DNA from: a virus
IMG/VR virus record: IMGVR_UViG_3300005077_000011
Coordinates: 1 to 21,001 of that record
Strand: one strand, 5' to 3'
Length of the DNA: 21,001 bases
Shown: positions 1,934 to 20,593 of the stretch, one piece after another
Numbering within the stretch: position 1 is the stretch's first letter
Layout: every line of letters begins with the position of its first letter
Position numbers and translations under genes: made by a program
Notes under the pieces: generated by a model
Told to the model about the DNA's origin: nothing
Databases searched by the model: none
Seen by the model: the letters and a program-made list of their open reading frames with translations, nothing else

Positions 1934-1939
1934 ATCAAG

Positions 1940-2012: not shown

Positions 2013-2018
2013 ATTAAG

Positions 2019-2090
2019 TACCCCGTAGAGGAATTGAACCCCTATCCCGTCGTTAGAAGCGATGTATTCTGTCCATTGAACTAACAGGGC
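2019..2090 (-). tRNA. tRNA-Arg(UCU)
   Basis: CATCG-CT-TCT-AA-CGACG. Confidence 0.93.
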
Positions 2091-2095
2091 ATAAG

Positions 2096-2167
2096 TGAAT
2101 CCTGAAGGAGTTGAACCTTCCTAAGCCAGCTTAAAAGGCTGGTGCACTTCCGCTATGCCAAAGATCC
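2096..2167 (-). tRNA. tRNA-Lys(UUU)
   Basis: CCAGC-CT-TTT-AA-GCTGG. Confidence 0.95.
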
Positions 2168-2182
2168 TATCTATATTTGTAT

Positions 2183-2350
2183 CTATATTTTAGCATTATA
2201 TGAGCTCTTTTCTCCACATCTTTCACAGACGGGTATATCTAATTTATATGTAAATGTTCTTCCTGCTCCACTAACAGATCTTGTATAAATCCATTTATGT
2301 TGTCCAAGAATAGATTTTTTACACTTTGTTTCTTTGATTTCTTCTTTCAT
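2183..2350 (-). CDS. 55-aa zinc-binding microprotein (C..H..CxxC, DUF1660-like)
   Basis: MKEEIKETKCKKSILGQHKWIY...PVCERCGEKSSYNAKI*. Confidence 0.7.
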   Translation of the reverse strand: MKEEIKETKCKKSILGQHKWIYTRSVSGAGRTFTYKLDIPVCERCGEKSSYNAKI

Positions 2351-2360
2351 ACACGCATTG

Positions 2361-2432
2361 TGAATCCAGAAAGATTCGGACTTTCAACCGTCCGCTTAAG
2401 AGGCGGATGCTCTACCATTGAGCTATAGATCC
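2361..2432 (-). tRNA. tRNA-Lys(CUU)
   Basis: TCCGC-CT-CTT-AA-GCGGA; T-loop TCCGAAT. Confidence 0.95.
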
Positions 2433-2486
2433 AAAAAAAGGTGGCTTTACACGGTACAAAACATAAAGTAATGACGTGATCCACCT
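2433..2486 (-). other. Bulged stem-loop followed by U-tract (terminator-like or small RNA)
   Basis: AGGTGG/CCACCT and CACG/CGTG followed by a T-run. Confidence 0.35.
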
Positions 2487-2489
2487 AAG

Positions 2490-2563
2490 TGCCTATGAGA
2501 GGACTCGAACCTCTAGAACGCAGTTTCTAAAACTGCTGTCTTTGCCAATTTGACTACAAGGGC
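2490..2563 (-). tRNA. tRNA-Leu(UAG) lacking variable arm
   Basis: GCAGT-TT-TAG-AA-ACTGC; 5-nt V-region GTTCT; Leu-type D-loop; A73. Confidence 0.9.
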
Positions 2564-2567
2564 TATT

Positions 2568-2648
2568 TGAGCTACACCGCTTTTACTAATGGGACTAGAA
2601 AGCTCTTCGAAATGTCCCACAAGAGTCACAACTTTCAGCTCAGGTGAC
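2568..2648 (-). ncRNA. Unassigned pseudoknot-capable RNA (~80 nt)
   Basis: GTCAC/GTGAC, TGAGCT/AGCTCA, GTGGGAC/GTCCCAT, CTCTT/AAGAG. Confidence 0.5.
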
Positions 2649-2656
2649 GGTAAGAG

Positions 2657-2730
2657 TGCCTATAACAGGATTCGAACCTGTACTTGACCGCTTTTAAGAC
2701 GGTTGCCTCTGCCAGTTGGGCTATAAGGGC
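2657..2730 (-). tRNA. tRNA-Leu(UAA) lacking variable arm
   Basis: ACCGT-CT-TAA-AA-GCGGT; 5-nt V-region CAAGT; A73. Confidence 0.9.
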
Positions 2731-2731
2731 T

Positions 2732-2780
2732 TGGAGCCAGTGTTTTTATTTTACTGTGGTCATCCCCGGCGTCCCACATC
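2732..2780 (-). ncRNA. Small H-type pseudoknot candidate ending in CCA
   Basis: TGTGG/CCACA crossed with GCCGG/CTGGC, A-rich linker GTAAAATAAAAACA, 3' end TCCA. Confidence 0.4.
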
Positions 2781-2785
2781 TTGAG

Positions 2786-2864
2786 TGCTCATAGAAGGAT
2801 TCGAACCTTCATGCTTTCACAATAGTTTTTGAAACTATCGCGTATACCATTTCGCCATACGAGC
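2786..2864 (-). tRNA. tRNA-Leu(CAA), miniature variable arm
   Basis: ATAGT-TT-CAA-AA-ACTAT; V-arm GT-GAAA-GC (2 bp). Confidence 0.93.
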
Positions 2865-2869
2865 AATTC

Positions 2870-3069
2870 CAGGATATATAGTTGCGAACATTTCGTACCC
2901 TGAAGGGTTCGGTTAGATTTTGGTTTTCACCAAAACCCTTTGGCTGGTCGTTTTATAGGACTGAGCAATACATTCCTATGGGCCGACCTCTGCAATTGCT
3001 TTGCTCCGCCTTACGGCATTTAACTGATCTTCAGCCTTGATCAGCACCACCACAATTTAAGCCATTGTG
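2870..3069 (-). ncRNA. Unassigned multi-hairpin RNA (~200 nt) with two candidate pseudoknots
   Basis: CACAAT/ATTGTG, CTGATC/GATCAG, GCC-GTAA-GGC, GGTCG/CGACC, ATAGGA/TCCTAT, TTTTGGT-GAAA-ACCAAAA, ACCC-TTCA-GGGT. Confidence 0.6.
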
Positions 3070-3071
3070 AG

Positions 3072-3157
3072 CGGAAGAAGTGAGATTCGAACTCACGAGA
3101 ATCTTTCGACGCTGCCAATTTAGCAAACTGGCTAGGATAACCACTCCAGATTCTTCC
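3072..3157 (-). tRNA. tRNA-Ser(GCU)
   Basis: GGAAGAA acceptor, loop TT-GCT-AA, long V-arm with GAAA, G73. Confidence 0.92.
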
Positions 3158-3161
3158 AATG

Positions 3162-3247
3162 CGGAAGCTGAGGGATTCGAACCCCCAAGAGCTTGCGCCC
3201 GTGCCTGTTTTCAAGACAGGTTCCTTAACCGTTGGGATCAAGCTTCC
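3162..3247 (-). tRNA. tRNA-Ser(UGA)
   Basis: CCTGT-CT-TGA-AA-ACAGG; V-arm GGGC-GCAA-GCTC; G73. Confidence 0.95.
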
Positions 3248-3396
3248 AGATCTTTTCTTTTTTTAAAGTTCATTTTGTCAACAGTATCTCTCATCCAGTT
3301 CAAATGTAGCATCCTGCTCCATTCTCCTACAGATTTCATTGGAGAAAACATTTTTCTCCAGATTCGATGCTTGAATTTTTTCTTTTTAAAATTCAT
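3238..3396 (-). CDS. 52-aa basic microprotein; stop codon lies inside tRNA-Ser(UGA)
   Basis: MNFKKKKFKHRIWRKMFSPMKSVGEWSRMLHLNWMRDTVDKMNFKKRKDLEA*. Confidence 0.55.
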   Translation of the reverse strand: MNFKKKKFKHRIWRKMFSPMKSVGEWSRMLHLNWMRDTVDKMNFKKRKDLEA

Positions 3397-3399
3397 ATC

Positions 3400-3470
3400 T
3401 GTTAGTCTCTAAACCTTATCTGACGGTTGAAGTAAGTATCAGTTTAGAGCAACCGTAAATTATACTAACA
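3400..3470 (-). ncRNA. Nested pseudoknot directly upstream of the micro-ORF at 3396
   Basis: TGTTAGT/ACTAACA encloses crossing helices ACGGTTG/CAACCGT and CTCTAAAC/GTTTAGAG, all perfect Watson-Crick. Confidence 0.6.
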
Positions 3471-3473
3471 TTG

Positions 3474-3545
3474 TAGTCCCTAAGAGACTTGAACTCCCAA
3501 CCTTCTCTGTGTAAAAGAGTCGCTCTGCCATTGAGCTAAAGGACT
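3474..3545 (-). tRNA. tRNA-Val(UAC)
   Basis: CTCT-TT-TAC-AC-AGAG; A73. Confidence 0.93.
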
Positions 3546-3546
3546 G

Positions 3547-3617
3547 AGCATTCAAGGGGACTCGAACCCCTGACCGCTGCTTGGAAGGCAGCCGCGTTAC
3601 CACTACGCCATGAACGC
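3547..3617 (-). tRNA. tRNA-Gly(UCC)
   Basis: GCTGC-CT-TCC-AA-GCAGC; U73; 1-nt spacer to tRNA-Val. Confidence 0.95.
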
Positions 3618-3619
3618 AA

Positions 3620-3942
3620 TTAAAAAACTAACTATGGGAAAGAAGGCAATAAAAAATCCGTTTTTCCAATCAGCGGTTGTTCCAGGTTTCCCCAGTTCAA
3701 CATAAAAGGTCTAACAAGCTCCTTTACTGAACTTGCCACTCATTGAATCCTCTGCAGTAAAAATTTACATATGCCTGTAAGGTGATTGTTAAAATCTACT
3801 GGATTCGAGACCATTATCACTCTTGCGAGATCTAGGCTTACCTTTGATTATTTCGAAAGTCTAGATACTAATCACTTAGCTTCAAATGTGCACTAGCCCT
3901 GCGTAGCAGCTTATTATGCGATTCCCAAAGTTAATTTTTTAA
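3620..3942 (-). ncRNA. Large unassigned structured RNA (~320 nt)
   Basis: 21-nt imperfect terminal inverted repeat, many internal helices and GNRA loops, no long ORF, promoter immediately upstream. Confidence 0.65.
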
Positions 3943-3954
3943 TGTTCAAATACT

Positions 3955-3983
3955 ATTATATACCAACTTTTAAAATTTGTAAA
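3955..3983 (-). promoter_or_regulatory. sigma70-like promoter inside the tRNA array
   Basis: TTTACA-17 nt-TATAAT. Confidence 0.75.
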
Positions 3984-3994
3984 TATTCAATTTG

Positions 3995-4065
3995 TACCCC
4001 TACAGAGATTCGAACTCTGGCTACTACCTTGAGGGGGTAGTGTCCTGCCTCTAGACAACAGGGGC
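3995..4065 (-). tRNA. tRNA-Glu(CUC)
   Basis: CTACC-CC-CTC-AA-GGTAG (C33). Confidence 0.9.
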
Positions 4066-4073
4066 ATCAACTG

Positions 4074-4145
4074 TGGACCATAAGAGAATCGAACTCTTAC
4101 CTAAACTTTGCAAAAGTTTCGTTCTGCCATTAGCACTAATAGCCC
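4074..4145 (-). tRNA. tRNA-Ala(UGC)
   Basis: AAACT-TT-TGC-AA-AGTTT; G3-U70 identity pair. Confidence 0.95.
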
Positions 4146-4146
4146 T

Positions 4147-4212
4147 TTACTTCTTTTTGTTTTTCTTTGGTTTCTTTTTCTCGCGATTGCCGCGACGTTC
4201 TTTGTCTGCCAT
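4147..4212 (-). CDS. 21-aa Lys/Arg-rich microprotein
   Basis: MADKERRGNREKKKPKKNKKK*; fills the spacer between two tRNAs almost exactly. Confidence 0.65.
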   Translation of the reverse strand: MADKERRGNREKKKPKKNKKK

Positions 4213-4215
4213 ACG

Positions 4216-4289
4216 TAGCGTGTGCCGGATTCGGACCGGCGATCTTTTCCTTGAAAGGGAAACGAGTTGGGCCACTCCTCCAACACGCC
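4216..4289 (-). tRNA. tRNA-Glu(UUC)
   Basis: TTTCC-CT-TTC-AA-GGAAA; T-loop TCCGAAT. Confidence 0.93.
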
Positions 4290-4294
4290 TTAAG

Positions 4295-4365
4295 TTCCAC
4301 TGCTAGGAATCGAACCCAGATTAAGTGGTTCAAAGCCACCTGGCCTACCTTTAGCCGACTGTGGA
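4295..4365 (-). tRNA. tRNA-Gln(UUG)
   Basis: GGTGG-CT-TTG-AA-CCACT; U1-A72. Confidence 0.93.
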
Positions 4366-4370
4366 ATCAG

Positions 4371-4499
4371 TTATTTTTCTATAGGTTCTTTTGTAACAAA
4401 CTTACAATTTAAACACTTCCAGTTTGTTTTTGTACTTGTATCCTGTTTAATTAAATTTGTTGAGTCACATTTTGGACAATGTTTTGTTGTATCTGCCAT
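4371..4499 (-). CDS. 42-aa zinc-ribbon microprotein
   Basis: MADTTKHCPKCDSTNLIKQDTSTKTNWKCLNCKFVTKEPIEK*; two CxxC motifs. Confidence 0.75.
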   Translation of the reverse strand: MADTTKHCPKCDSTNLIKQDTSTKTNWKCLNCKFVTKEPIEK

Positions 4500-4502
4500 A
4501 AG

Positions 4503-4574
4503 TTGGTAAGACAGGATTTGAACCTGTGGCCTCTTCAATGTCAATGAAGCGTTCTTCCTCTGAACTACTCACCA
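4503..4574 (-). tRNA. tRNA-Val(GAC), first gene of the array
   Basis: CTTCA-TT-GAC-AT-TGAAG; TGGTGAG/CTTACCA acceptor. Confidence 0.93.
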
Positions 4575-6371: not shown

Positions 6372-8051
6372 ATGGAAATAAATTTTACAAAATTGTTTAC
6401 AAAATTGTTTACAAAAGCTCAAAAAGCTCAGTACGTAGTGACAAATGATCCTCGCTCTAAGGAATTAGGACAACCTATTCCAGCTCAATACTCTCCAGAG
6501 ATTAGAACTCGTTTGTATAAAACTCCTATTGTCTTCATGGCAATTAATACAATCGCAGATCAAATTGCAAAAGTGGATTGGGAAATAGTTCCTAAAAAAT
6601 CTATCTTAGAAACTTTTGGTTATGGACAAAGAGAAGGTAAATCAGTTGCAGTCTTAACAAGAAAAGAATGGGGACAGTTTACTAGAAAATATACAGGGAC
6701 AGATCGACAAAATATTTCTTCTCAAGTAAAAAGCCATATACAAAAGATTTATGATTTACTTCAAGATCCTAATGAAAATCAAGAAAATTTTTCTGCAATA
6801 ATAAAGAAAATAGCAATAGATCTTAAAATACATGATGCTGCAGGTATAGAAAAAACTCGAAATGGTCTTAATGAAATAGCAGAAATATATACAGTGCCAG
6901 GCCCATATATTAGAATGAATTATGATAAAAATGGAAAATTATTAGATCCAGCTTATTATCAACAAGATCCAAAATTTAATACAAGCAAAGTAGCAGAGTG
7001 GAATAAAGATGAGCTTATTTACTTTATGCTTAATCCTATATCTACTTCAATGTATGGTGTTTCTCCAATTGACGTAATTGCTCAAACAGTGGCTACGCTA
7101 ATAAATGCTCTTAATTATAACGGCACTTATTTTGAGTCTGCTGCTCTTCCAGAAGGATATTTTTCAATTCCTAATTTGTCAGAACAAGCTGCAAGAAGAT
7201 TAATGCAAAAATGGGAACAAGAAATTAAATCTAAAGCTCATAAAGTATTATTTATGCCAGAAGGAGCTACTTGGCATCAGTTTAGATTTTCTAACGTTGA
7301 AATGCAATGGCTTCAAGGACAGAAGTTTTATATGGAACTTGTTATGGCTGTTCTTGGTGTTACAAAACACGAATTAGGATTCACAGAAGATGTTAATAGG
7401 GCAACTGCGGATAATCAATCATTTGTATTTAAGAATAAATCTCTTCTTCCAATTCTTGGCTTAATTGCAGATAAAATTAATCAAGAGCTTATAGGAAAAT
7501 CTGGATTTGAATATGATGATGTGATGTTTGTCTTTAAAAATGTTGATCTTGCTGATAAAGAAACAATGGACAAAATTCATGATCGAGCAATCAAATCAGG
7601 AAGAATGACAATTAATGAAGCGCGAGAAGAAGCAGGCCATCGTCCTTATCCTGATTTTGGAGATGAGCCTGTCATTGCAACATCACAAGGTTTAGTGTTT
7701 TTACAGCAATATGATATGCAATTTAAAGAATATCAAGAAGAACAAGCTTGGCTTAAAGCAGAAGCTGCTAAGCAAAAAATTCCAGTAGCTGAATTGCGAA
7801 GACGAAATTCTGCAACAAAAGCAAATGAAAAACAACAACCTAATTCTCCAAACAATCCGAAAAGTCCACCAAAAGCTCCAGGCGCCGATGAACAGCCAAA
7901 CGTGGATGAAAGTAAGCCAAAAGAGAAAAGCTTTACAACTGTTGATGGGCTTAAACAGCTTGCAGAAACAATTGAAACAGCTTTAAAAGAAAATGACAAA
8001 CAGACAGAAGCTTCAAAAGACATTGGATCTAATAAAACAATTTCTCATTAA
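6372..8051 (+). CDS. Phage portal protein (HK97 family)
   Basis: VFMAINTIADQIAKVDW, YGVSPI, YFESAALPEG, VLGVTKHELG, NRATA, GRMTINEARE. Confidence 0.95.
   Translation: MEINFTKLFTKLFTKAQKAQYVVTNDPRSKELGQPIPAQYSPEIRTRLYKTPIVFMAINTIADQIAKVDWEIVPKKSILETFGYGQREGKSVAVLTRKEWGQFTRKYTGTDRQNISSQVKSHIQKIYDLLQDPNENQENFSAIIKKIAIDLKIHDAAGIEKTRNGLNEIAEIYTVPGPYIRMNYDKNGKLLDPAYYQQDPKFNTSKVAEWNKDELIYFMLNPISTSMYGVSPIDVIAQTVATLINALNYNGTYFESAALPEGYFSIPNLSEQAARRLMQKWEQEIKSKAHKVLFMPEGATWHQFRFSNVEMQWLQGQKFYMELVMAVLGVTKHELGFTEDVNRATADNQSFVFKNKSLLPILGLIADKINQELIGKSGFEYDDVMFVFKNVDLADKETMDKIHDRAIKSGRMTINEAREEAGHRPYPDFGDEPVIATSQGLVFLQQYDMQFKEYQEEQAWLKAEAAKQKIPVAELRRRNSATKANEKQQPNSPNNPKSPPKAPGADEQPNVDESKPKEKSFTTVDGLKQLAETIETALKENDKQTEASKDIGSNKTISH
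6384..6430 (+). repeat. In-frame tandem repeats at the portal 5' end
   Basis: TTTACAAAATTG x2.75 (FTKL-FTKL-FTK), then AAAAGCTCA x2. Confidence 0.85.
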
Positions 8052-8781
8052 AGAGAAACGAAAATATTGGATAACGCCAAAAGATAAAAGATATAGTCGA
8101 ATTGTAAATAAATACAAATCTCGACTTTCTTCTTTATGGACAAAAACACGTGATTCTTATCTTCATAAGTTTACTTCTAAACAAATAACAGAGTTAGATG
8201 ATAATCCAGAACAATATGATAAACCTCAGTTTGATTCTTCAGAATATATAGATGCTGCTTTATTAATTTTAGCAGAAGCTTTTGGAGAAGCTGTTATTAT
8301 TGGTTTTAAAGAAATTCAGAATAGAGGCATTTCAATTAAAATTCCAGAAAATCTTCATAAACTATTTAATAGTGCAAAAGAAATCAAAAATTATGAATGG
8401 GCAGCTTTATCTTATGAACAAAAACAAATGGATGATATTTTCAATGAATATAATAAAACTACGAACGGAAAAGAAGAAATTCAAAAATGGTTTGATAATA
8501 ATGAATATCGTTTAACAGATTTAATTATTGGTGGATTAGTATGGTACGGAATTCAATATGGGTTTGCTCAAGCAATTATAGAGGCTCAGAGCGGTGCTCC
8601 AGGAAGTAAAATATTAGCTTTTTGGATTACTGAACAAGATAATAAAGTGTGCAGTGACTGTTCTAATCTTGAAAAAAACAGTCCATATTCAGAAGAGAAT
8701 CCTTTGCCTACTTTACCAGGTGGAGGAAAAACAATTTGTGGAAGCAAATGCAGATGTATTATAGATTATAAACAAGAATAA
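7993..8781 (+). CDS. Head morphogenesis / minor capsid protein (SPP1 gp7/MuF-like)
   Basis: WITEQDNKVCSDC...LPGGGKTICGSKCRC; follows the portal. Confidence 0.8.
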   Translation: MTNRQKLQKTLDLIKQFLIKEKRKYWITPKDKRYSRIVNKYKSRLSSLWTKTRDSYLHKFTSKQITELDDNPEQYDKPQFDSSEYIDAALLILAEAFGEAVIIGFKEIQNRGISIKIPENLHKLFNSAKEIKNYEWAALSYEQKQMDDIFNEYNKTTNGKEEIQKWFDNNEYRLTDLIIGGLVWYGIQYGFAQAIIEAQSGAPGSKILAFWITEQDNKVCSDCSNLEKNSPYSEENPLPTLPGGGKTICGSKCRCIIDYKQE

Positions 8782-8783
8782 TT

Positions 8784-9068
8784 ATGGACTTAATATCTTA
8801 TATAAACCCTATTGTTGCCATAATATCCTATGGTTTAGGATTTTTAAGCGGATATATAATTCATCGCTTTATTGAAAAAACAGAAGAAAAGGACAACAGT
8901 ACTTTTGTGTTAATTATAGTGACTTTAATATGGGCAATTTCTATGATAGTAGATATAGTTAGTCCAACGTATGAAACTTCACCATTACTTCATGGATTAA
9001 TGGGAGCTATTGTTGGTTTCTATTATAAGAAAGGCATTTCTTATGACAAAACATCTAAAACAAGTTAA
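8784..9068 (+). CDS. Small multi-TM membrane protein (holin-like)
   Basis: Three hydrophobic segments and a basic tail. Confidence 0.6.
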   Translation: MDLISYINPIVAIISYGLGFLSGYIIHRFIEKTEEKDNSTFVLIIVTLIWAISMIVDIVSPTYETSPLLHGLMGAIVGFYYKKGISYDKTSKTS

Positions 9069-10426: not shown

Positions 10427-10618
10427 ATGATAGTAGAAATAAAAACAAATAAAACTTTAGATCCTAGACAAAGTGTTGTTATAATTAATGGTGTAGAGTA
10501 CAAAAATATTGAAAGTCTACAGCTTCGTCTGATAAAAGATGGGCGAGGAGAACTAACTATACAACATAGCTCTGGGTATTTAGAGGCTTACAAAGCAGAG
10601 GTGAACAATGATATATGA
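10427..10618 (+). CDS. Hypothetical beta-rich protein
   Basis: 63 aa; ATGA overlap with the protease gene. Confidence 0.7.
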   Translation: MIVEIKTNKTLDPRQSVVIINGVEYKNIESLQLRLIKDGRGELTIQHSSGYLEAYKAEVNNDI

Positions 10619-11646
10619 ACTATAACACATTCAAATTTTATACAAACACTTTAAAAGCTGTTAAAAGTGATGATAATTCTCGATACATTGTTGGTATTGC
10701 TTCTTCAACAGCTCTTGATCGTGATGGAGATAGAATGTCCGAAGCTGCTCTTCAAACAATGAAATCAACAGCAGAAGCAAATCTTACAATCTTTACAAAT
10801 CATGAATACAAAGTACCAGATGATCTTTTTGGATCTTGTACAGAAGCATTAATTAAAGCTAAAAAAGACGAACAACCTATTGTTGTTAAGAGCGAAGATA
10901 ATATGACAGAAATTGCTACTTTTAGTCCTCAAAATATGGAGATTAAAATTAAAGTCGTTTCTGATGCTGTTAATCCAAAAGCAGGACAAATATATAAAGC
11001 TATTGAAGAAGGTGTCAATTTAGGATTTTCAATAGGAGGAGTTGTACGAAAAGCAGTTAAGGTATTTGATGATGTAGCAAAAAAAGCTTATAATCTTATT
11101 GATGCTATTGAATTGTACGAAATATCGATCGTCTCAATTCCGGCAAATCCAGATGCTATGAATCTCGCAATTGCAAAATCACTTAAAACAGACAAAGACG
11201 AAAAAGTCAATAAAGAAGAAATTGTTGAAATTGTCAAGAAAATTGAAAATGCTCAACCAAAAGAAGTAGAATATACCCTTGAAGGCACTCATAATTTTTT
11301 GCTTGGAGTTCTTAAAGGAATGTATGATGAAACTTATGGAGCAGAACCAAACAAACTAACTCAAGAACAGATGGATGAAATAGAAGAAGAAGATATGCAG
11401 AGAGCAAAAGCACAAGCAGAAAATATTCTTATGTGTAATGGTATTGCAGTAAAAGTTGATGAAACAGATGATCACGTAATTCATCTTAGATCTCATTCTT
11501 ATTGTATGCAAGACTGCATGTCAATGGGCAAAGATGTAACAACACACGCAAATCATATTCAAAATCATCTTAAAAAATTAAAAAAAGAAATTGCAGAAGA
11601 TGAAGCCACAGAAGACACTGCAAATATGGGAAAAGTAAGCATATGA
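10615..11646 (+). CDS. HK97-type prohead protease with C-terminal His-rich extension
   Basis: GIASSTALDRDGDRM, FTNHE, GFSIGG, LYEISIVSIPANPDA. Confidence 0.93.
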   Translation: MNYNTFKFYTNTLKAVKSDDNSRYIVGIASSTALDRDGDRMSEAALQTMKSTAEANLTIFTNHEYKVPDDLFGSCTEALIKAKKDEQPIVVKSEDNMTEIATFSPQNMEIKIKVVSDAVNPKAGQIYKAIEEGVNLGFSIGGVVRKAVKVFDDVAKKAYNLIDAIELYEISIVSIPANPDAMNLAIAKSLKTDKDEKVNKEEIVEIVKKIENAQPKEVEYTLEGTHNFLLGVLKGMYDETYGAEPNKLTQEQMDEIEEEDMQRAKAQAENILMCNGIAVKVDETDDHVIHLRSHSYCMQDCMSMGKDVTTHANHIQNHLKKLKKEIAEDEATEDTANMGKVSI

Positions 11647-11928: not shown

Positions 11929-12384
11929 ATGAAAACAAACGAAGAAGTATTAAAAGACGTTAAAGAAACGCTTGATGCTATTGACGCATTAAAAACTGCT
12001 GCAACAGAAAAGAAAGAAGAGAAAGTTGAAGAAAAAAAAGAAGTAGTAGAAGAGAAAAAAGAAGAAGTTGTAGAGGAAAAGAAAGAAGAAGTTGAAGCAG
12101 TTGTTGAAGACGAAAAAGAAGAGGTCAAACCAGAAGAGGAAAAAGAAGAAGTGAAAGAAGAGGAAAAAGTCGAAGAAAAGAGTGTTGACCTTACTGAAGT
12201 CTTAAACGGAATTAAAGATATTGCTGCAGTCGTTGGAAAACTTTCTGAAGATGTAGAAGCTCTTAAAGCTGCAAAAACAGCAAAAAAGAGTGTTGTAGTT
12301 GAAGACGAAAAAATAGAACAGAAGAAAGAAATGACTGAAGAAGAAAAGCTTAGAAAACAAGCTCAAATAATCTTTGGAAAATAA
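11929..12384 (+). CDS. Acidic capsid scaffolding protein
   Basis: E/K/V low-complexity repeats, coiled coil, position directly before the capsid gene. Confidence 0.75.
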   Translation: MKTNEEVLKDVKETLDAIDALKTAATEKKEEKVEEKKEVVEEKKEEVVEEKKEEVEAVVEDEKEEVKPEEEKEEVKEEEKVEEKSVDLTEVLNGIKDIAAVVGKLSEDVEALKAAKTAKKSVVVEDEKIEQKKEMTEEEKLRKQAQIIFGK

Positions 12385-12499: not shown

Positions 12500-13441
12500 A
12501 TGGATAAAGTTGACGTAAAAAAAGCGCTTGGAGGTGTTAATACTTCTGATGCAACAGGTGGAGATTTTATTCCTACAGAACTTGCCGCAGAATTAGTTGA
12601 GTATATCAAATGGAATTCAGTTGGTAGAAATCTTTGGGATCAAGTCATAATGCCTACTCCTACATTCCTTATTCCTAAACTCACAGGTGTTAACTCAATC
12701 TACTATGTAGGTGAAGGTTCACAACCAACACAATCAGGAATGGCAACAGATCAAGTTACTCTTACAGCTAAAAAGCTTATGGGTCTTTTGACAGTTGACT
12801 CAGAAATCGATGAAGATTCAAAAATCGCATTGATGCCTTTGATTAAACAGGATTTTGGTACAGAAATTGGTCTTGCAGAAACTGATGCATTCTTTAATGG
12901 AGATACATCATTTGCTGTTTCAGATCATCCACGAAAAGCTTTTAATGGTCTTAGAGCTCTTGCAGCAGGCACAGCAGTCGATGCAGCAGGTTCAAGAATA
13001 ACTCTTAAGCATCTTAATCAAGGTCTTGTAAATCTTGGTAGACACGGACAAAATCCACAGATGATCGATGTTTTTGGTGCTCCTATAGTCATTGGAGAAC
13101 TTAGAAAACTTTACGCAGACTTCGATAAGTACACAGTGTTTAATCAAGGTGCACTTAAAACAGGTCAGGTCGGAGCTATCTGGGGAATGAATGTGTACAC
13201 AGTAGGTCTTCTTCCAACAGATCTTACCTATGGTGGATCTACAGGAAATGGATATACTGAAGCTCTTCTTGTAAATAGAAGAACTCCTATCATTGGAGAC
13301 CGAAGAGCGATCAAATTTAAAACATTTGATCAAATCTGGACAGATCAAACTCTTGTCGTTCCTTCAGAACGTATTGCGTTTGCTGTTAGATGGACGGATG
13401 CTATCGTTAAAATCACAAACTTGGAAACAACACTTAGCTAA
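12500..13441 (+). CDS. Major capsid protein (HK97 fold)
   Basis: GGDFIPTELA, YVGEG, VTLTAKKL, ETDAFFNGD, IWGMNV, ERIAFAV; SD GGAGGTGA. Confidence 0.95.
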   Translation: MDKVDVKKALGGVNTSDATGGDFIPTELAAELVEYIKWNSVGRNLWDQVIMPTPTFLIPKLTGVNSIYYVGEGSQPTQSGMATDQVTLTAKKLMGLLTVDSEIDEDSKIALMPLIKQDFGTEIGLAETDAFFNGDTSFAVSDHPRKAFNGLRALAAGTAVDAAGSRITLKHLNQGLVNLGRHGQNPQMIDVFGAPIVIGELRKLYADFDKYTVFNQGALKTGQVGAIWGMNVYTVGLLPTDLTYGGSTGNGYTEALLVNRRTPIIGDRRAIKFKTFDQIWTDQTLVVPSERIAFAVRWTDAIVKITNLETTLS

Positions 13442-13472: not shown

Positions 13473-14429
13473 ATGTCTGAAGAATTAATTCGGATTAGAC
13501 ACTTGGATAGTCCGAATATTACAGTTTTTATAGAAGGAAAACAAATTAACATTCGTAATTATGAAGCTTTGATACCTAGAAGCGACGCAAAAGCAATAGT
13601 ATCAGGGCCATATGGTTATGAATTAGTTGGTATATACGATGATTTCATCGTATATGTTAACAAAATTGACATCCAAACAAAAACTTTCAGACCAATGAGT
13701 GCTCTTGATAATAGTGTATTAGTAGGTACTTCATTAGCTGGTAGTAAATTATATGCTTGGGAAAAATATTCTCAAGCTCTTCTTACTTTAAAAGGCAAAG
13801 AAAAACTTCACTTACTCTTCACAATAGATGATTCAAAAGCCTCTTGGAAACAACAAATTCATGATTGGGCAGAAACTAATATTGACAAATTTTATAATAT
13901 AACTATTATTGAATGGGACTCAGATAAAGAAATGGCGTGGAATCGAGTATTCAAAATTACAGTAGGTCGACAACTTATCTTTAATTTTGCAAGGACTATT
14001 GAAAATATAACTCATATCTTTTTTATAGATTCAGACAATATAGTTCCAGAACATGCTTTTGAGACACTCTATTCACTTGAGAAGCCTGCAGTAGCAGGAT
14101 TGTATAACTTTAAATCAGTTGTTTCAGGAGGGCCAGTTGTATTTAACGGATATGGCGATAAAAATTGGCCGCCAACATGTCTAGGCAAGCAATTAGTAGA
14201 AACAAAACAAGATTCAGGTTTAATTGAATGTGACTGGACTGGAGCAGGATGTCTCATGATAAGCAGAAAAATATTTGAAAAATATAATTTTGATTGGTCT
14301 AGGTGGATACAACGGAACGGAGAAGACGCTTGGATATGTTTATGCGCTCAAAAAGAAACAGGTCAAAAACTTTTAGTAGATACTTCAGTAAAATGCGGAC
14401 ATTTAGATGATAGAGGTCAAATATGGTAG
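13473..14429 (+). CDS. GT-A (GT2-like) glycosyltransferase with extra N-terminal domain
   Basis: FFIDSD, DWTGAGCLMISR, GEDAWIC, VDTSVKCGH; SD AAGGAG before ATG 13473. Confidence 0.88.
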   Translation: MSEELIRIRHLDSPNITVFIEGKQINIRNYEALIPRSDAKAIVSGPYGYELVGIYDDFIVYVNKIDIQTKTFRPMSALDNSVLVGTSLAGSKLYAWEKYSQALLTLKGKEKLHLLFTIDDSKASWKQQIHDWAETNIDKFYNITIIEWDSDKEMAWNRVFKITVGRQLIFNFARTIENITHIFFIDSDNIVPEHAFETLYSLEKPAVAGLYNFKSVVSGGPVVFNGYGDKNWPPTCLGKQLVETKQDSGLIECDWTGAGCLMISRKIFEKYNFDWSRWIQRNGEDAWICLCAQKETGQKLLVDTSVKCGHLDDRGQIW

Positions 14430-15649
14430 ATGTAAAAATACGTCATCGGGATCATTTGAATATTGTTACTTTTATTGACGGAAAACAAATAAATATTAGA
14501 AATCATGAGGGAATTGTGCCTCTTGATCTTGCTTCAAAATTAATAGAATCTCCTTTTGGATATGAATGGGGAGCTCCTGTTGAACCTTTCAATAAAGAAA
14601 CTTGGACAAAAACTAACCGTAAAATTGTTTGGAATCATATTATGCCTTATTATGAAGGATATGGATATGTAGGACAAATGATGGTTTGGGCGCTTAAAGA
14701 ATTAGGAATAGATATTTCTATTTTTTATAAACCTGAAATGTATTATCTCAAAAGAGACATTATGGATCTTATTTTTAAAGAACGTCAATACGATTGTTGG
14801 GGAATATGGCATCATTTTTGGATGAAGCCTGGAATGTTACCACATGAGAAAAAAGCCATGTATACTATGTGGGAAAGTACTCAACTTCTTCCAGGATGGG
14901 CAAATGCGTGCAATGAAGTAAATATGATATTTGTTCCTTGCGAAGAAGATGTTAAAATCTTTAAAACAAATGGAGTAAAAGTTCCTATTAGAGTTTTGCA
15001 TCATGGAGTAGATCAAGAATTTTATTATTATCGACCAAAAGTAAAAAGAGATAAGTTTATTGTTGGAACAATAGGAAGTTTAGTCCCTCGAAAAGATCCT
15101 GAGCTTCTTATAAAAGCTTTTTTAGATGAATTTCGAAATGAAAAAGATGTTTTGCTATATATGAAAGACACAAACGAAGAAACAGATCTTTCAAATAAAT
15201 ACAAAGATAATGAAAAAATACAATTTAATGGAAAAAAAATATCACCTTTAGAATTAGGAGATTTATTAGCTTCTTTTGATATTGCTGTTTTTCCTTCTCA
15301 TGGAGAAGGCTTTGGACTCGGCGGACTTCAAGCTATGGGCGTTGGAACAACATGCATATGCACAAACTGGGGTGGGTTCAAAGAATATCTAAACTCAGAG
15401 TATAATTTTACTCTTGACTGTAAATTAGTTGATATAAAAAATATTGCCTCTAATAATACTTTTTATTCAGGGCAATGGGCTCAAGCAAGCTATGAACATC
15501 TTAGAAGTTTGCTTAGATATGCTTATGAACACAAAGATGAAATTCATAAAAAAGGGGAAAAAGCAGCTCAATGGGTAAAAGAATTTTGGACGTGGAAGCG
15601 ATGTGGTCAACAATTAATTAATGCAATTGATGAATACGAAAGAATATGA
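14423..15649 (+). CDS. GT-B (GT4-like) glycosyltransferase with the same N-terminal domain
   Basis: GYG, HGVD, PRK, FPSHGEGFGLGGLQAMGVG, TNWGG, FWTW. Confidence 0.92.
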   Translation: MVDVKIRHRDHLNIVTFIDGKQINIRNHEGIVPLDLASKLIESPFGYEWGAPVEPFNKETWTKTNRKIVWNHIMPYYEGYGYVGQMMVWALKELGIDISIFYKPEMYYLKRDIMDLIFKERQYDCWGIWHHFWMKPGMLPHEKKAMYTMWESTQLLPGWANACNEVNMIFVPCEEDVKIFKTNGVKVPIRVLHHGVDQEFYYYRPKVKRDKFIVGTIGSLVPRKDPELLIKAFLDEFRNEKDVLLYMKDTNEETDLSNKYKDNEKIQFNGKKISPLELGDLLASFDIAVFPSHGEGFGLGGLQAMGVGTTCICTNWGGFKEYLNSEYNFTLDCKLVDIKNIASNNTFYSGQWAQASYEHLRSLLRYAYEHKDEIHKKGEKAAQWVKEFWTWKRCGQQLINAIDEYERI

Positions 15650-16368
15650 ATACAATATGTGCAAACATGATATTAGGAGAAAAACCTGAACCATTTTTAG
15701 AATATTCTTTGAATTCGATAAAGTGGGTAGATGAACTTGTAATTGTTAATACAGGATCAAAAGACAATCTTAATATAAATATTGCAAAGTCTATTGTTCC
15801 TCATGCAAAATATTTAGATTTTTTTAACTCAAATTTGCCATTTACTTTTTCTAACGCAAGAAATTATGCACTAGACAACTCATCTGCATATTGGATTTTG
15901 TGGATTGATGCAGACGAAGTTCATTATAATCATCTAGAGAGAATATTAAGAGAAAGTCTTTCTTGGACACACTATGATGGCTTTCAATTTTGTTTTTATC
16001 ATTTTTTATTAGACGTATTTCATTATCAACATAAAGAATATAGAAAAAATGTATTTAAGCGAATAGGAAGAAGATGGAACGGAGACGTTCATGAACAAGT
16101 TTACCCTTTAGAAAATACTTTAAGTCTTGATTATTTTTATCATCATTACGGATATGTCAAACCACAACATTTAATTTATGAAAATTGGAAATTGTATTGG
16201 AGTCTAAATCCAGAAGAAAAATATAAACTTAATGAAAATAGAAATCCAAATGATATAATCTCTGACAGAGTCACTGTTGCTCATGAATATACAGGTTTAT
16301 ATCCAGAAGTTATTCAAGAATATATTAAAAAACAAAAACCTATTGTAAAAAATTATAATTTTCTTTAA
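15646..16368 (+). CDS. GT2 glycosyltransferase
   Basis: VDELVIVNTGSKD, FSNARN, WILWIDADE, GDVHEQV, HHYGY. Confidence 0.92.
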   Translation: MNTICANMILGEKPEPFLEYSLNSIKWVDELVIVNTGSKDNLNINIAKSIVPHAKYLDFFNSNLPFTFSNARNYALDNSSAYWILWIDADEVHYNHLERILRESLSWTHYDGFQFCFYHFLLDVFHYQHKEYRKNVFKRIGRRWNGDVHEQVYPLENTLSLDYFYHHYGYVKPQHLIYENWKLYWSLNPEEKYKLNENRNPNDIISDRVTVAHEYTGLYPEVIQEYIKKQKPIVKNYNFL

Positions 16369-16369: not shown

Positions 16370-17029
16370 ATGAAAAAAATCGGAATAATACTTACTACAT
16401 TTAATAATTTAGAAATGACAAAAGTGTGTTTGCATTCATTGTTTGAAAATACAACAAATTATGAGTTAATTGTTGTTGATAACAATTCTACTGACGGCAC
16501 ACAAGATTGGATAAAAAAGCAAAATATTCAATTGATAGAATTAAAAGAATGGAAAGGAGTATCTAGTGCTATCAATCAAGGAATACGCTTCTTTTTTAAT
16601 AAAGAGAATGAAAAAACTTTTTATGACATTTGCTGGATTCATAATGATATGACTTTTTTTCCAAAATGGTTAAATGCTTTGCAAGAATATCTTGATAATC
16701 ATCCTGAATGTGGTCGTGTAGCTTCACATAATATGCGTGATCCATTAGCTCCTGAAAGGCCGGGAAATGAATTGCCATTTCTTATAAGAGGTGAATGCTT
16801 TAAAAAAATAGGAATGTTTGATGAACGTTTCAAAGGAGCAGCTGGCAAAGAAGATTGGGATTTCAATAATAGACTCTTAGATAATGGTTGGAAAATTATG
16901 ATTACTCCTGAATCAAAAGTATTTCATAAAGGCGCAGGAACAAGATCTGGACTTATGCCTAGAGAATGGGAAGAACATAATAATTGGTTATATTGGTCAA
17001 AGTGGGGAACAAATGAACCTAAAGTATAA
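16370..17029 (+). CDS. GT2 glycosyltransferase
   Basis: IVVDNNSTDGT, HND, GMFDERF, EDWDF. Confidence 0.92.
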   Translation: MKKIGIILTTFNNLEMTKVCLHSLFENTTNYELIVVDNNSTDGTQDWIKKQNIQLIELKEWKGVSSAINQGIRFFFNKENEKTFYDICWIHNDMTFFPKWLNALQEYLDNHPECGRVASHNMRDPLAPERPGNELPFLIRGECFKKIGMFDERFKGAAGKEDWDFNNRLLDNGWKIMITPESKVFHKGAGTRSGLMPREWEEHNNWLYWSKWGTNEPKV

Positions 17030-17780
17030 TATATCAGCAGTAATTCCTGTGTTAGGAAATTGGAATTACACAGAAAAATGCTTGACTTCTCTCTTTTCAA
17101 AGAGTGAATTCATAGATGAAATTATTGTTATAGATAATTCTAATGATAAAGATTCTACAAGAGCAATTATTAAAAACGGATATCCGTGTTCAATTTATGC
17201 TCCAGGAAGAAATCTTGGAGTCGGTCAATCATGGGATGCTGGAATAAAAATTGCAAAGAATAATATTATATGTGTTATAAATAATGACGTAGAAATTATT
17301 ACTGAAAAATGGGATACAATAATAATGACAGAATGGCAAAAGCATGAAGATGCAATAGTATTTTGTCCTTGGCCTGCAAGTCATGAGACTGAAGATCTAG
17401 CTCATATGGTTGATCCTTTAAAAGGTCTCAATGGAAGTTGTTTTTTTGTTGACAGAAATAGTCTACAATTAACTGACAACTATAAATTATTAGGACACTA
17501 TATTGATCCAATTTATCATTTAGCATATTGGGAAGATTGTGATTTGCTAGTTCAAGTTAGAAAATTAGGAAAAGAAAGTTATGTCACATCAAAAGTAAAA
17601 ACGGTTCACTATAGTAATAAAACAGCTGGACCACTGCTTCCAAGTAATAAAGGAATGAATAATCCTTATTGGAGTAATCTAGATAAATTTAATAAAAAAT
17701 ATGGAGTAAATATATGGGACTATTTCAAAGTGTTTATGAGTAATGTTCTTGATGAAAATTCAAACGAAAGGCTTATATGA
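17013..17780 (+). CDS. GT2 glycosyltransferase
   Basis: SAVIP, IIVIDN, NLGV, INND, AYWEDCD. Confidence 0.9.
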   Translation: MNLKYNISAVIPVLGNWNYTEKCLTSLFSKSEFIDEIIVIDNSNDKDSTRAIIKNGYPCSIYAPGRNLGVGQSWDAGIKIAKNNIICVINNDVEIITEKWDTIIMTEWQKHEDAIVFCPWPASHETEDLAHMVDPLKGLNGSCFFVDRNSLQLTDNYKLLGHYIDPIYHLAYWEDCDLLVQVRKLGKESYVTSKVKTVHYSNKTAGPLLPSNKGMNNPYWSNLDKFNKKYGVNIWDYFKVFMSNVLDENSNERLI

Positions 17781-17926
17781 AACATTTTAAAACAACTAAA
17801 AAAGGAATGTATCAAGATGAAAGCTTCAAAAGACAAAGAACAATACAAATGTTAAGAAAAATGAAAGAAGAAAGAAAACGCACAAAGACAGAAATGAGGA
17901 ATTATGAAAACAGCGATAATTTATGA
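17777..17926 (+). CDS. 49-aa basic hypothetical protein (not in ORF track)
   Basis: ATGA-coupled to the upstream GT; MKHFKTTKKGMYQDESFKRQR...; overlaps the next gene. Confidence 0.55.
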   Translation: MKHFKTTKKGMYQDESFKRQRTIQMLRKMKEERKRTKTEMRNYENSDNL

Positions 17927-18788
17927 TCTAGGAACACCATTTACAACAGGAGTATATTTTGATAGAGCTTTGAGAGAACTTGGTATAACTGTAGACAGGT
18001 TTGATCATAATAATGTCACTACAGTACCGGAGGGATATGGTTTATACTTTATTATTGATTCAGGACCACAATATGCTATTCCAGAATGGAAATCTGGACC
18101 TTCAATTTATTATAGCATTGATACTCATCTTGATTTTGAACATAGATTTGAAATGGCTAAAACAGCAGGCATTCCTGTTATGGCACAATATTCGTGTGGT
18201 GCTAAAAGGGCTACAGATGCCGGATTAGAAACTTTATGGCTTCCTCTTGGTTGTGACCCTTGGATTCATCAAGATTATCAAGTAGAAAGAAATTTAGATA
18301 TAGCATTTGTAGGTCACTTGTATGAAGATGATCCATGGAGACAAACTATTCGTTCAAAATTAATTTCTCACGGATTTAATGAAAACAAAATCTTTATTGG
18401 AGAAGCTACAAAAGAGGACATGGGACAAATATACTCAAGAGCAAAAATTGTTCTTAATGCTTCAGTAAGAAATAATCGACAAGATATTAGTATGCGTTTT
18501 TTTGAAGCCATGTCTAGTGGAGCATATCTTCTTACTCAAAAATTACTTCATGATGATGCTAACAAAATTATAGACCCAAAGCTTTATAGTACATTCGAAA
18601 ATGATGAAGAAATGTTTGTCAAAATTGATGATATTCTTAAAAATTATGTTGTGTATCATGATGTTGCGGAAAGAGCAAAACTTTTCATAAGAACATTTCA
18701 TACTTATGCAAAACATATAGAGAGTCTATTTAGAAATATAACAATGAATAAAAAAGAAAGAAATCAATTTACAGAATTAATAAAATGA
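17904..18788 (+). CDS. GT-B glycosyltransferase (CgeB/Glyco_trans_1_2-like)
   Basis: WLPLGCDP, DIAFVG, YSRAKIVLN, MRFFEAMSSG, HTY. Confidence 0.9.
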   Translation: MKTAIIYDLGTPFTTGVYFDRALRELGITVDRFDHNNVTTVPEGYGLYFIIDSGPQYAIPEWKSGPSIYYSIDTHLDFEHRFEMAKTAGIPVMAQYSCGAKRATDAGLETLWLPLGCDPWIHQDYQVERNLDIAFVGHLYEDDPWRQTIRSKLISHGFNENKIFIGEATKEDMGQIYSRAKIVLNASVRNNRQDISMRFFEAMSSGAYLLTQKLLHDDANKIIDPKLYSTFENDEEMFVKIDDILKNYVVYHDVAERAKLFIRTFHTYAKHIESLFRNITMNKKERNQFTELIK

Positions 18789-19525
18789 AAAATATTGCTT
18801 ATATTATAAAAACACATAATGAGTTGCCATATCTGCAGCTTATGCTATGGAGCCTCAAATACAATAATCCAAACATGTGGAACAGTTCAAATATATATAT
18901 ATTTGCGAATAATTGTAATGACGGCACAAAACAATGGTGTGATAAGAATAATCTTTGGTGCAAAGAAGTAAATTTTCCAGGGCTTTATTCTCTTTGGAAT
19001 CATGCTGCACAAATAACAAATGAACAATTTATTGTATTTTCAGCCTCTGACTTTGTCTTAGCTCCAGGTTTTTGGAATAAAATTATCAAGCAAACAGTAG
19101 AAAATAAAGACAAATTTTTCCATTTTACAGGAACTTGTTTAGATAATGGAGTAAGTTATGGTCATCAGGATGAACCTATACGAAGATGGTATGTAAGAAA
19201 TTGTGGAGATAATTGGCAAGAATTTGATTATGATAAATTTATTAATTACACAAAAGAATTTGAAAATGATAATGGAATATTAGAAGGAGTAACACAGTAT
19301 TGTCCTTTTATAACAACGCGAGAGCATTATGATTTGCTTGGAGGATTTAATTTAGCTCAAGGAGACTATCCTTCTGATGTAGACGAAACATTTGTAAGAA
19401 CAGGGCGAGAAAAAGGTAGACCTCCTTGTATAGTAAGAGGAGCATGCTTTTATCATTTTGGTAAGAAGTCTTTACTAAGACGAGATACAATTAATTATGA
19501 TTGGAGTGAAATAGACAACATATGA
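18785..19525 (+). CDS. GT2-like glycosyltransferase
   Basis: NNCNDGT, WNHAA, ASDFV, LGGF, YHFG. Confidence 0.85.
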   Translation: MKNIAYIIKTHNELPYLQLMLWSLKYNNPNMWNSSNIYIFANNCNDGTKQWCDKNNLWCKEVNFPGLYSLWNHAAQITNEQFIVFSASDFVLAPGFWNKIIKQTVENKDKFFHFTGTCLDNGVSYGHQDEPIRRWYVRNCGDNWQEFDYDKFINYTKEFENDNGILEGVTQYCPFITTREHYDLLGGFNLAQGDYPSDVDETFVRTGREKGRPPCIVRGACFYHFGKKSLLRRDTINYDWSEIDNI

Positions 19526-20064
19526 TAACATCTAGAAATTCAAATAGAGATATTAGCAAGTTAACAAAGCTTCACTTAGGCTGTGGAGGAGATTTTAAAG
19601 AAAATTATATTAACGTGGATTTATATGATCTTCGTGTTTGTGATGTTCAAGACGATATGATTACTTTAGAAAAATTTCCTGATAATTTTGCATCTGAAAT
19701 ATTTCATATGCACATAATGGAACATATAAATTATGATGAAGGCCATAAGGCTATAAAAACTTGGTATAGAGTAATGGCACATGGTGGAAAATTAGAATTT
19801 GAAACTCCAGATGCAGAAGAAACTTTTAGAATGTTTTTAGAAATGGATTATCACCAAAGATGGGAACAAGTAGCTAATTTATGGCAAGGATATAAGATGC
19901 AAATCTGGGGAACTCAGGATGCCCCCGGAATGCAACACTATATTCTATATGACAAAGAAAAAATGTACAAAATGCTTGAGGAAGCAGGATTCAAAAATAT
20001 ATCAGTAGTCAACATTAATGATCCCTGGCTCCGCGAAAACATGAGAGTCGAAGCTTATAAATAA
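19522..20064 (+). CDS. Class I SAM-dependent methyltransferase (type 11-like)
   Basis: KLHLGCG, YINVD, HIMEHI, GGKLEFETPD, LEEAGF. Confidence 0.92.
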   Translation: MITSRNSNRDISKLTKLHLGCGGDFKENYINVDLYDLRVCDVQDDMITLEKFPDNFASEIFHMHIMEHINYDEGHKAIKTWYRVMAHGGKLEFETPDAEETFRMFLEMDYHQRWEQVANLWQGYKMQIWGTQDAPGMQHYILYDKEKMYKMLEEAGFKNISVVNINDPWLRENMRVEAYK

Positions 20065-20065: not shown

Positions 20066-20593
20066 ATGACTCCATGGAATAAAGGTAAAACTGGTGTATA
20101 CTCTAAAGAAACTTTATTAAGAAAAAGTTTAGCTACTAAAGGAATACCAAAGAGTTTAGAAACTAGAAAAAGAATGAGTGAGGGCTCTAAAGGAAAAATA
20201 ATGTCAAAAGAAGCTAGATTAAAAATGAGTCTAGCTAAAGCTGGAAAGAAAAGAAGACCTTTATCTTTAGAAATTAAAAAGAAAATAAGCATAACATTAA
20301 AAATTAGAAATAATCCTAATTTTTCTGAAGATACTATAGAATATAAAATAAACACAGGCTCTGTAGAATATTTTCATTTTAGAAAACAAGTTTTAATTAG
20401 AGATGAATACACGTGTCAAAGATGCGGAAATAAAGAAAATCTAGAAGTTCATCATATAAAGCCTAAAGCTCAATTTCCTGAATTTCTCTGTACAATAGAA
20501 AATGGAATAACTTTATGTGATAAATGTCACTGCAAAGTGGATAAAATTAGATCTTATTTTGGCACAAGAAATTACAAAAAATTATATAAATAA
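20066..20593 (+). CDS. NUMOD3-repeat HNH homing endonuclease
   Basis: PWNKG, SxETRKRMS-type repeats, RDEYTCQRCG, LEVHHIKP, NGITLCDKCH. Confidence 0.92.
   Translation: MTPWNKGKTGVYSKETLLRKSLATKGIPKSLETRKRMSEGSKGKIMSKEARLKMSLAKAGKKRRPLSLEIKKKISITLKIRNNPNFSEDTIEYKINTGSVEYFHFRKQVLIRDEYTCQRCGNKENLEVHHIKPKAQFPEFLCTIENGITLCDKCHCKVDKIRSYFGTRNYKKLYK

Follow-up and report, generated by a model that had tools for sequence, protein, structure and literature searches.

A small N-terminal domain shared by two phage glycosyltransferases of unrelated folds: a candidate adaptor encoded next to the major capsid gene

We analyzed a 21,001-nucleotide (nt) stretch of DNA (hereafter, the window), which is the first 21 kb of an uncultured-phage record (IMG/VR record IMGVR_UViG_3300005077_000011; 89,947 bp, judged 96% complete). 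Two adjacent glycosyltransferase (GT) genes located directly downstream of the major capsid protein gene were found to encode copies of the same small N-terminal domain (N-domain) in front of unrelated catalytic parts. Gene A (13473–14429, plus strand) codes for a 318-amino acid (aa) protein consisting of the N-domain, a linker and a GT-A catalytic domain, and gene B (14423–15649, plus strand) codes for a 408-aa protein in which the N-domain is fused with a GT-B catalytic part of the GT4 type. The domain corresponds to residues 5–51 of gene A (13485–13625, plus strand) and residues 3–49 of gene B (14429–14569, plus strand). We tentatively propose that it is a common protein-recognition adaptor that brings both enzymes to the same acceptor, most probably the capsid or the assembling head.

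An earlier reading of this DNA (the original prediction) had claimed an ungapped N-terminal match of 45 residues, 23 of them identical, between the two proteins. BLASTP reproduced this match between residues 6–50 of gene A and residues 4–48 of gene B, with 32 positives and an E value of 2e-13. At the nucleotide level, the strict match covers 13488–13622 in gene A and 14432–14566 in gene B, and the two DNA segments are identical at 77 of 135 positions. When gene B was shuffled 200 times, the best 45-residue ungapped window contained at most 13 identities (mean 10.4). The remaining parts of the two proteins had no further significant similarity in BLASTP, and no copies of the domain beyond those of A and B were detected in the 89,947-bp genome. 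In the other five GTs of the cassette, a GT2 or GT1 Pfam match begins at residues 6–15, or no domain match is found otherwise, which agrees with the claim that these enzymes lack the domain. An assembly artefact could be ruled out as the source of the shared stretch, since both copies are present, in diverged form, in more than nine independent assemblies.

Structure modelling suggested that the shared stretch is a self-folding domain of approximately 50 residues with a β(4)-α-β topology. When modelled alone with AlphaFold2 (AF2) from an alignment of 27 copies, it had a predicted local distance difference test score (pLDDT) of 90.2, with strands at residues 3–8, 13–18, 21–26 and 29–33, a helix at 34–42 and a final strand at 47–49. 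The same elements were found in the model of full-length gene A (strands 5–10, 16–20, 23–28 and 31–35, helix 36–43, strand 49–51), in which the pLDDT of the N-domain was 83–93. Four residues (H8, G46, Y47 and E48) are invariant in all 17 GT-A and 10 GT-B copies, and N13, I14, I23 and A37 are nearly so.

Structural comparisons of the domain gave weak matches. The best match was the C-terminal domain of the archaeal primase PriS (1zt2_A, residues 279–329; Z 6.0, root-mean-square deviation (rmsd) 2.1, 50 aligned residues), followed by the N-terminal domain of Bacillus subtilis YqbF (2hjq; Z 5.0, rmsd 2.1, 47 aligned) and several GINS B-domains (Z 4–4.5). GINS also ranked first in a Foldseek search of PDB, with a best E value of only 0.39. 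We take the PriS C-terminal domain, the YqbF N-terminal domain and the GINS B-domains to be grouped in SCOP superfamily d.344.1, and to have the same arrangement of four strands, a helix and a strand. This superfamily is named the PriA/YqbF domain and occurs in ∼95% of eukaryotic proteomes (PMC5671483). Our domain resembles its members in size and topology. However, it has no detectable sequence similarity to them, none of them is fused to a glycosyltransferase, and the Z scores are below what would prove common ancestry; assignment of the predicted structure to a PriA/YqbF/GINS-B-type fold is thus consistent with the data but falls short of establishing homology. The best match in BFVD (E 0.013, template modelling (TM) score up to 0.77) was to unnamed phage proteins, and the nearest shapes in viral and metagenomic model libraries were small phage proteins of 72–191 aa (TM score by query 0.65–0.77). 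A feature search of a protein atlas with the domain returned only unnamed clusters, with scores of 0.80 or less. None of the best hits listed from four fold libraries and Pfam was a sugar-binding or catalytic subdomain, which does not by itself exclude one; the top hits were instead the PriS C-terminal domain, YqbF and the GINS B-domain.

The catalytic part of gene A adopts a GT-A fold in its AF2 model (full-length pLDDT 89.6, predicted TM score (pTM) 0.89), a single Rossmann-like α/β/α domain seen over residues 77–315 (model range 76/77 to 315/317) and delimited by VIA-align and conserved columns as residues 77–318 (13701–14426, plus strand). Its closest structural relatives were residues 293–536 of LH3 (8one_A; Z 20.4, rmsd 3.5, 216 aligned by VIA-align), residues 48–311 of COLGALT1 (9evk_A; Z 20.0) and Mnn9 (3zf8; Z 19.5), and ordinary GT2 enzymes (RmlT, TarP and SpsA) had Z scores of 17–18. 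None of these structural matches covered residues 1–76. A D186-S-D188 sequence (within FIDSD), in which both Asp residues are invariant in 18 homologs, is the predicted DxD metal/nucleotide-sugar motif. By sequence, gene A had no match in Pfam or NCBIfam and only weak matches in PHROGs (phrog_1574, E 9.7e-07; phrog_12406, "glycosyltransferase", E 4.6e-04), and one of its orthologs has a precomputed PF00535 assignment. The start of gene A was placed at the ATG at 13473, which lies behind an AAAGGAG ribosome-binding site and agrees with the N-termini of orthologs; on these grounds, an upstream TTG was rejected.

Gene B could be assigned by sequence. It matched PF00534 (Glycos_transf_1; E 2.4e-15, 56.9 bits against a cut-off of 26.4), PF13692 (Glyco_trans_1_4; 54.6 bits) and PF20706, and its residues 67–405 matched phrog_2170, a phage GT family, with an E value of 1.1e-38. 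Because positions 4–372 of the 374 positions of this profile are matched from residue 67 of gene B onwards, the phrog_2170 family does not have the N-terminal piece. GT4 enzymes contain an EX7E motif, in which two Glu residues are separated by seven positions. The corresponding site of gene B is at residues 295–303 (15305–15331), where E295 is invariant and the second position is occupied by Q303. This Gln is invariant in nine of nine gene B orthologs, suggesting that the second Glu of the motif was consistently replaced in the family.

The assertion that the catalytic parts have unrelated folds was therefore upheld, with gene A being a GT-A enzyme (Z ∼20) and gene B a GT-B enzyme of the GT4 type. 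That the domain is an appended module is also well supported: it is predicted to fold alone, it lies outside both the GT-A core, which begins at residue 77, and the GT-B family profile, which begins at residue 67, and it is absent from the nearest outside families (the phrog_2170 and phrog_1574 profiles) and from a GT-A paralog encoded elsewhere in the same genome.

We further checked the occurrence of the domain in sequence databases. Searches of Pfam, PHROGs and NCBIfam with the domain found nothing, a profile run against PDB sequences gave nothing below an E value of 0.3, and hmmscan of all 27 copies against Pfam (E values up to 10) revealed no consistent family. The domain family is new to these four resources. 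A four-sequence profile was read exhaustively against 1.84 billion cluster representatives and recovered two true families, represented by a 410-aa GT-B protein (E 1.8e-19) and a 321-aa GT-A protein (E 4.2e-16). When a 27-sequence profile was used in a word-indexed search of the longer proteins of a 5.8-billion set, only proteins of 316–324 aa (GT-A) and 408–411 aa (GT-B) were found, the other matches being fragments and one truncated gene call. Neither a stand-alone copy of the domain nor a third fusion partner was detected in these two profile searches. Scans of IMG/VR with GT-A and capsid alignments recovered only one or two true relatives and hence added no new architectures. The 17 other full-length gene A homologs (49–72% identity) all contain the domain. 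One of them, a 301-aa protein (P0019) of relative L012, appeared to be an exception; its gene was called too late, and an in-frame ATG at approximately 7941 (L012, 7941–8000) restores the full N-domain, which is intact upstream. As regards fusion partners and linkage to capsid genes, the profile searches thus yielded two architectures only, and each copy for which genomic context was available directly follows a phage capsid gene rather than residing in a cellular GT locus. In these searches, the domain was confined to two enzyme families in one rare, uncultured phage lineage.

Several database matches were examined and rejected. Ankyrin-repeat proteins (P0025, P0026, P0029 and P0030) matched repeat by repeat through the pattern G-x-x-(I/V)-N-x-x-N-x-x-G-x-x-P-L, and were dismissed as spurious in view of the predicted β-rich structure and single-copy occurrence of the domain. 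Two further proteins, P0027 (185 aa) and P0028 (391 aa), have only short motifs in common with the domain. P0027 is a high-GC, membrane-anchored protein in which GP[FWQ]GYE[WL] is repeated four to five times, GYE being the invariant end of the domain. P0028 is a collagen-like phage fibre protein with three occurrences of NVVTFSDGKxLNIKNG, which resembles strands 2–3 of the domain. These likenesses are probably due to chance or short-motif convergence.

Phylogenetic analysis separated the 27 copies of the domain by enzyme type, the GT-A and GT-B copies forming two distinct clades (support 100/100). The mean identity between A and B domains was 0.45 within a genome versus 0.43 between genomes. 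The clean clades and the nearly equal identities indicate one old duplication or domain transfer instead of recent recombination, and rule out gene conversion as the cause of the similarity between A and B. Judged from these sequences, the duplication or transfer preceded the diversification of this phage lineage. The mean pairwise identity of the domain was 63% versus 56% for the catalytic part in the GT-A family, and 59% versus 68% in the GT-B family. The domain is thus about as conserved as the catalytic parts and has been maintained by purifying selection of similar strength; it is therefore not a passive leftover.

The two genes head a cassette that is embedded in the structural module of the phage. 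On the plus strand of the window, a portal gene (6372–8051, PF04860), an S78-type prohead protease gene (10615–11646), a gene for a Glu/Lys-rich scaffold-like protein (11929–12384) and the gene for a 313-aa HK97-type major capsid protein (12500–13441; PF05065, Phage_capsid, E 1.1e-20) precede gene A, which begins 31 nt after the stop of the capsid gene (13441). A and B are therefore the first two genes after the capsid gene, as the original prediction stated. A terminator scan of the gap between the capsid gene and gene A revealed no convincing terminator, and site counts were near shuffle expectation. Genes A and B overlap by 7 nt, and gene B is followed, all on the plus strand and all assigned by Pfam matches, by three GT2 genes (15646–16368, 16370–17029 and 17013–17780), a Glyco_trans_1_2 gene (17904–18788) and another GT2 gene (18785–19525). 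The last gene of the cassette encodes an S-adenosylmethionine (SAM)-dependent methyltransferase (19522–20064, plus strand; PF13489, E 7.7e-08), which is also present in relatives. The cassette thus comprises seven GTs and a methyltransferase, and its genes overlap or abut. An HNH/NUMOD3 homing-type endonuclease gene (20066–20593) follows it directly. Further 3′ in the genome are two "virion structural protein" genes (phrog_10356), another GT-A-like paralog and a giant open reading frame (ORF); with head genes upstream and virion structural protein genes downstream, the cassette lies within the structural module.

Eight relatives had sufficient flanking sequence for a comparison of this gene order (L001, L004, L005, L006, L011, L012, L013 and part of L007). 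In all eight, the order is portal, protease, scaffold-like protein, capsid protein, A, B and then three GT2 genes; the capsid gene, A and B were always adjacent, and in most of these genomes B starts before A has ended. Compared with the proteins of the window, the capsid protein has diverged far less in relatives (82–92% identity) than gene A (49–72%) or gene B (61–80%). The first five GTs of the cassette are constant and the distal part is variable, containing either Glyco_trans_1_2 and GT2 genes or polysaccharide deacetylase and GT2 genes. For example, a polysaccharide deacetylase-like gene is present in L004 (12813–14276) in place of the Glyco_trans_1_2 gene. Inserts in the cassettes of relatives included Cpn10, small ORFs and a NUMOD3 endonuclease. 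In L004, the Cpn10 (GroES-like) gene is located right after the last GT of the cassette, and in L011 (12662–12940) it lies within the cassette. The NUMOD3 protein gene of L012 (10130–10687) separates gene B from the GT2 gene that follows. As the endonuclease gene follows the cassette in the window and interrupts it in L012, mobile endonucleases appear to enter the cassette at different points.

Additional features of the genome were noted. A cluster of 26 tRNA genes (Rfam gathering threshold) is located on the minus strand at 161–4574 of the window, where the GC content is ∼0.40–0.43, compared to ∼0.30 in the coding part. The additional GT-A-like paralog, the eighth GT-A-like gene (genome 28131–28814, equal to 8131–8814 of segment L015), encodes a 228-aa protein that matches phrog_1574 (E 2.7e-16), lacks the N-domain and shares 29% identity with gene A in the vicinity of the DxD motif. 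Directly 3′ of it is the giant ORF (more than 2,397 codons; 8810–16000 in L015), and this adjacency hints that tail or fibre proteins may be glycosylated too. A nucleotide/DNA module at genome positions 53001–62000 contains dUTPase_2-like, ThiF-type E1, deoxynucleoside monophosphate (dNMP) kinase-like, uracil-DNA glycosylase (UDG)-superfamily and thymidylate synthase (ThyS)-family genes (the last matching phrog_5131 with an E value of 1e-73) as well as the start of a DnaE polymerase gene, interspersed with unannotated genes for proteins of 371, 286 and 221 aa.

Under the reading that we tentatively favour, the domain on A and B would bind one common macromolecule as acceptor, for which the major capsid protein or the assembling head is the most probable candidate; A and B would add the protein-proximal sugars, and the later, domain-less GTs would only need to recognize the glycan. 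A shared macromolecular acceptor is the simplest common ligand; the sugars nearest to the protein need enzymes that see the protein surface. The domain would thereby provide two unrelated catalytic cores with one common binding specificity, and docking on the capsid is a plausible candidate role, which neither the genomic positions of the copies nor the fold matches contradict. The major capsid protein is the presumed acceptor, or at minimum the product of the gene that precedes every cassette. We infer the description of A and B as priming enzymes from gene order only. Mild support for a protein acceptor comes from the closest structural relatives of the gene A core, which are domains of collagen hydroxylysine glycosylation enzymes; this support is tempered by the fact that the matched regions of LH3 and COLGALT1 are, we assume, accessory or non-catalytic GT-A domains. 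A more specific version, about which we are doubtful, is that the domain serves as a portable tag for addressing the head and docks glycan-priming enzymes of any fold on the capsid protein or procapsid; it may derive from a YqbF-like small head protein that formerly occupied the position behind the capsid gene. In PBSX-type prophages, the gene for YqbF comes immediately after that for the major capsid protein, and a role in head-tail connector assembly has been speculated (PMC11526630). By analogy, this position may be a lead to the role of our domain and is not a test of it.

Several observations weigh against docking on the capsid. All detected loci belong to one syntenic lineage, and the linkage to the capsid gene is therefore one evolutionary observation, not nine. 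It is only presumed that the cassette glycosylates a protein, and the thymidylate synthase-like gene in the nucleotide-metabolism module keeps DNA in play as an acceptor. The pTM of 0.89 of the full-length gene A model suggests that the domain is packed on its own catalytic domain and is not a free tether, and its most conserved residues could be structural. Moreover, the fold matches of the modelled domain are weak (Z of 6 or less; Foldseek E values, when rounded, of at least 0.4 against PDB), and profile searches found no sequence link between the domain and YqbF or any Pfam family.

The domain may instead act as a pairing module, in which the N-domains bind each other or the other enzyme, such that A and B form a heteromeric priming complex with no other target. 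We consider this unlikely, though in its favour is the presence of the domain on exactly two adjacent genes, whose adjacency is invariant in relatives and mostly accompanied by the overlap of the start of B with the end of A. Judging from alignment columns and predicted strands, conserved hydrophobic residues are present on both faces of the sheet, and the B-domain of GINS, one of the fold matches, serves subunit contacts. However, genes of the cassette that lack the domain show start-stop overlaps just as often, and translational coupling is thus not special to A and B. Co-folding of full-length A and B gave a score of 0.00 against a mark of 0.32, that is, "no answer", which we counted neither for nor against binding. 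The model of full-length gene A on its own, with its high pTM and well-predicted N-domain, would also suit a structural cap or regulatory lid held in a fixed position on its own catalytic domain, with a function in stability, acceptor-site gating or homo-oligomerization and no external partner; the invariant G46, Y47, E48 and H8 could then be determinants of the fold. Such a role appears improbable, as one small domain would have to fit against two unrelated catalytic folds, it is predicted with confidence to fold by itself, and the nearest GT relatives (the phrog_2170 and phrog_1574 profiles and the in-genome paralog) work without it.

Two other explanations place the function of the domain outside capsid glycosylation. 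If the glycans were attached to hydroxymethylated bases of phage DNA, the domain would bring A and B to DNA or to the packaging machinery. Phage DNA-hypermodification clusters do contain GT-A and GT-B enzymes in series, and a ThyS-family gene is present here too, next to the UDG-like, dNMP-kinase, dUTPase_2-like and DnaE genes at 53–62 kb; phage GTs add mono- to trisaccharides to 5-hydroxymethylcytosine, and some of the clusters are near structural genes (bioRxiv 10.1101/2023.12.21.572611, Pyle et al.). In contrast to the cassette described here, such pathways are usually clustered, with the GT genes beside a ThyS or 5mYOX gene and one to three sugars being added (bioRxiv 10.1101/2023.12.21.572611). 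Our cassette is located inside the head module, ∼39 kb from the ThyS-family gene and its nucleotide module, and its seven GTs and methyltransferase exceed what known DNA glycans would require. In addition, by residue count both copies of the domain have approximately six Lys/Arg versus seven Asp/Glu and are not basic. We regard a DNA-directed cassette as very unlikely. Finally, the domain might be a capsid-targeting tag by which A and B enter the prohead, similar to the targeting peptides of T4 internal proteins or the cargo tags of encapsulins. Its N-terminal position, its invariant G-Y-E end and the location of the two genes after those for the scaffold-like protein, S78 protease and capsid protein would fit. 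However, the targeting sequences we know of are short peptides and not folded domains of 50 residues, and it is not apparent why glycan-building enzymes that depend on sugar nucleotides of the cytoplasm should be packaged, which makes loading into the prohead hard to credit.

Capsid glycosylation by phages has a precedent in mycobacteriophages Che8 and Rita, as described in PMC11256854 (citing Freeman et al. 2023). According to this source, these are also tailed phages that use their own GTs, and their glycans are covalently attached to the major capsid protein and form a glycan shield. The same account gives Maravista, an F1-cluster phage closely related to Che8 and Rita, few putative GT genes, located near the 3′ end of the genome (PMC11256854), unlike the arrangement in the window. 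In our phage, the capsid gene is immediately followed by genes for seven GTs and a methyltransferase, from which glycosylation is predicted. We know of no shared targeting domain in GTs of the Che8/Rita type. Chlorovirus PBCV-1 also glycosylates its major capsid protein with its own cytoplasmic multi-domain GTs and a methyltransferase activity, without the secretory machinery of the host. It differs in being a eukaryotic giant virus with several catalytic domains per polypeptide, and, to our knowledge, no small adaptor domain is shared among chlorovirus GTs. In cells, GTs with appended acceptor-recognition modules include OGT with its tetratricopeptide (TPR) repeats, ppGalNAc-T with its lectin domain and the GtfA-GtfB pair that modifies serine-rich adhesins. 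In these enzymes, as proposed here, a non-catalytic module that is added to, or partnered with, the GT core directs it to a protein acceptor. However, each of these modules belongs to one enzyme family, whereas in the window one module, a candidate adaptor, occurs on both a GT-A and a GT-B enzyme.

Both GTs with appended recognition modules and glycosylation of phage virions are therefore already known in kind. We found no description in the papers surveyed of one adaptor-like domain on the GT-A and GT-B enzymes that head a phage glycosylation cassette. The question of how viral GTs find their capsid substrates arises for both mycobacteriophages and chloroviruses, and the domain offers a concrete, separable candidate for this recognition step. 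If it docks on heads, it could be used to decorate or shield phage particles and to aim enzymes at heads. Were the proposed head-addressing tag to prove true, it would represent the first module described in a viral protein-glycosylation machine whose dedicated function is targeting; if the domain only pairs A and B, it would be a compact docking domain recruited across GT folds. Either way, the data define a new domain family of approximately 50 residues that is predicted to fold alone.

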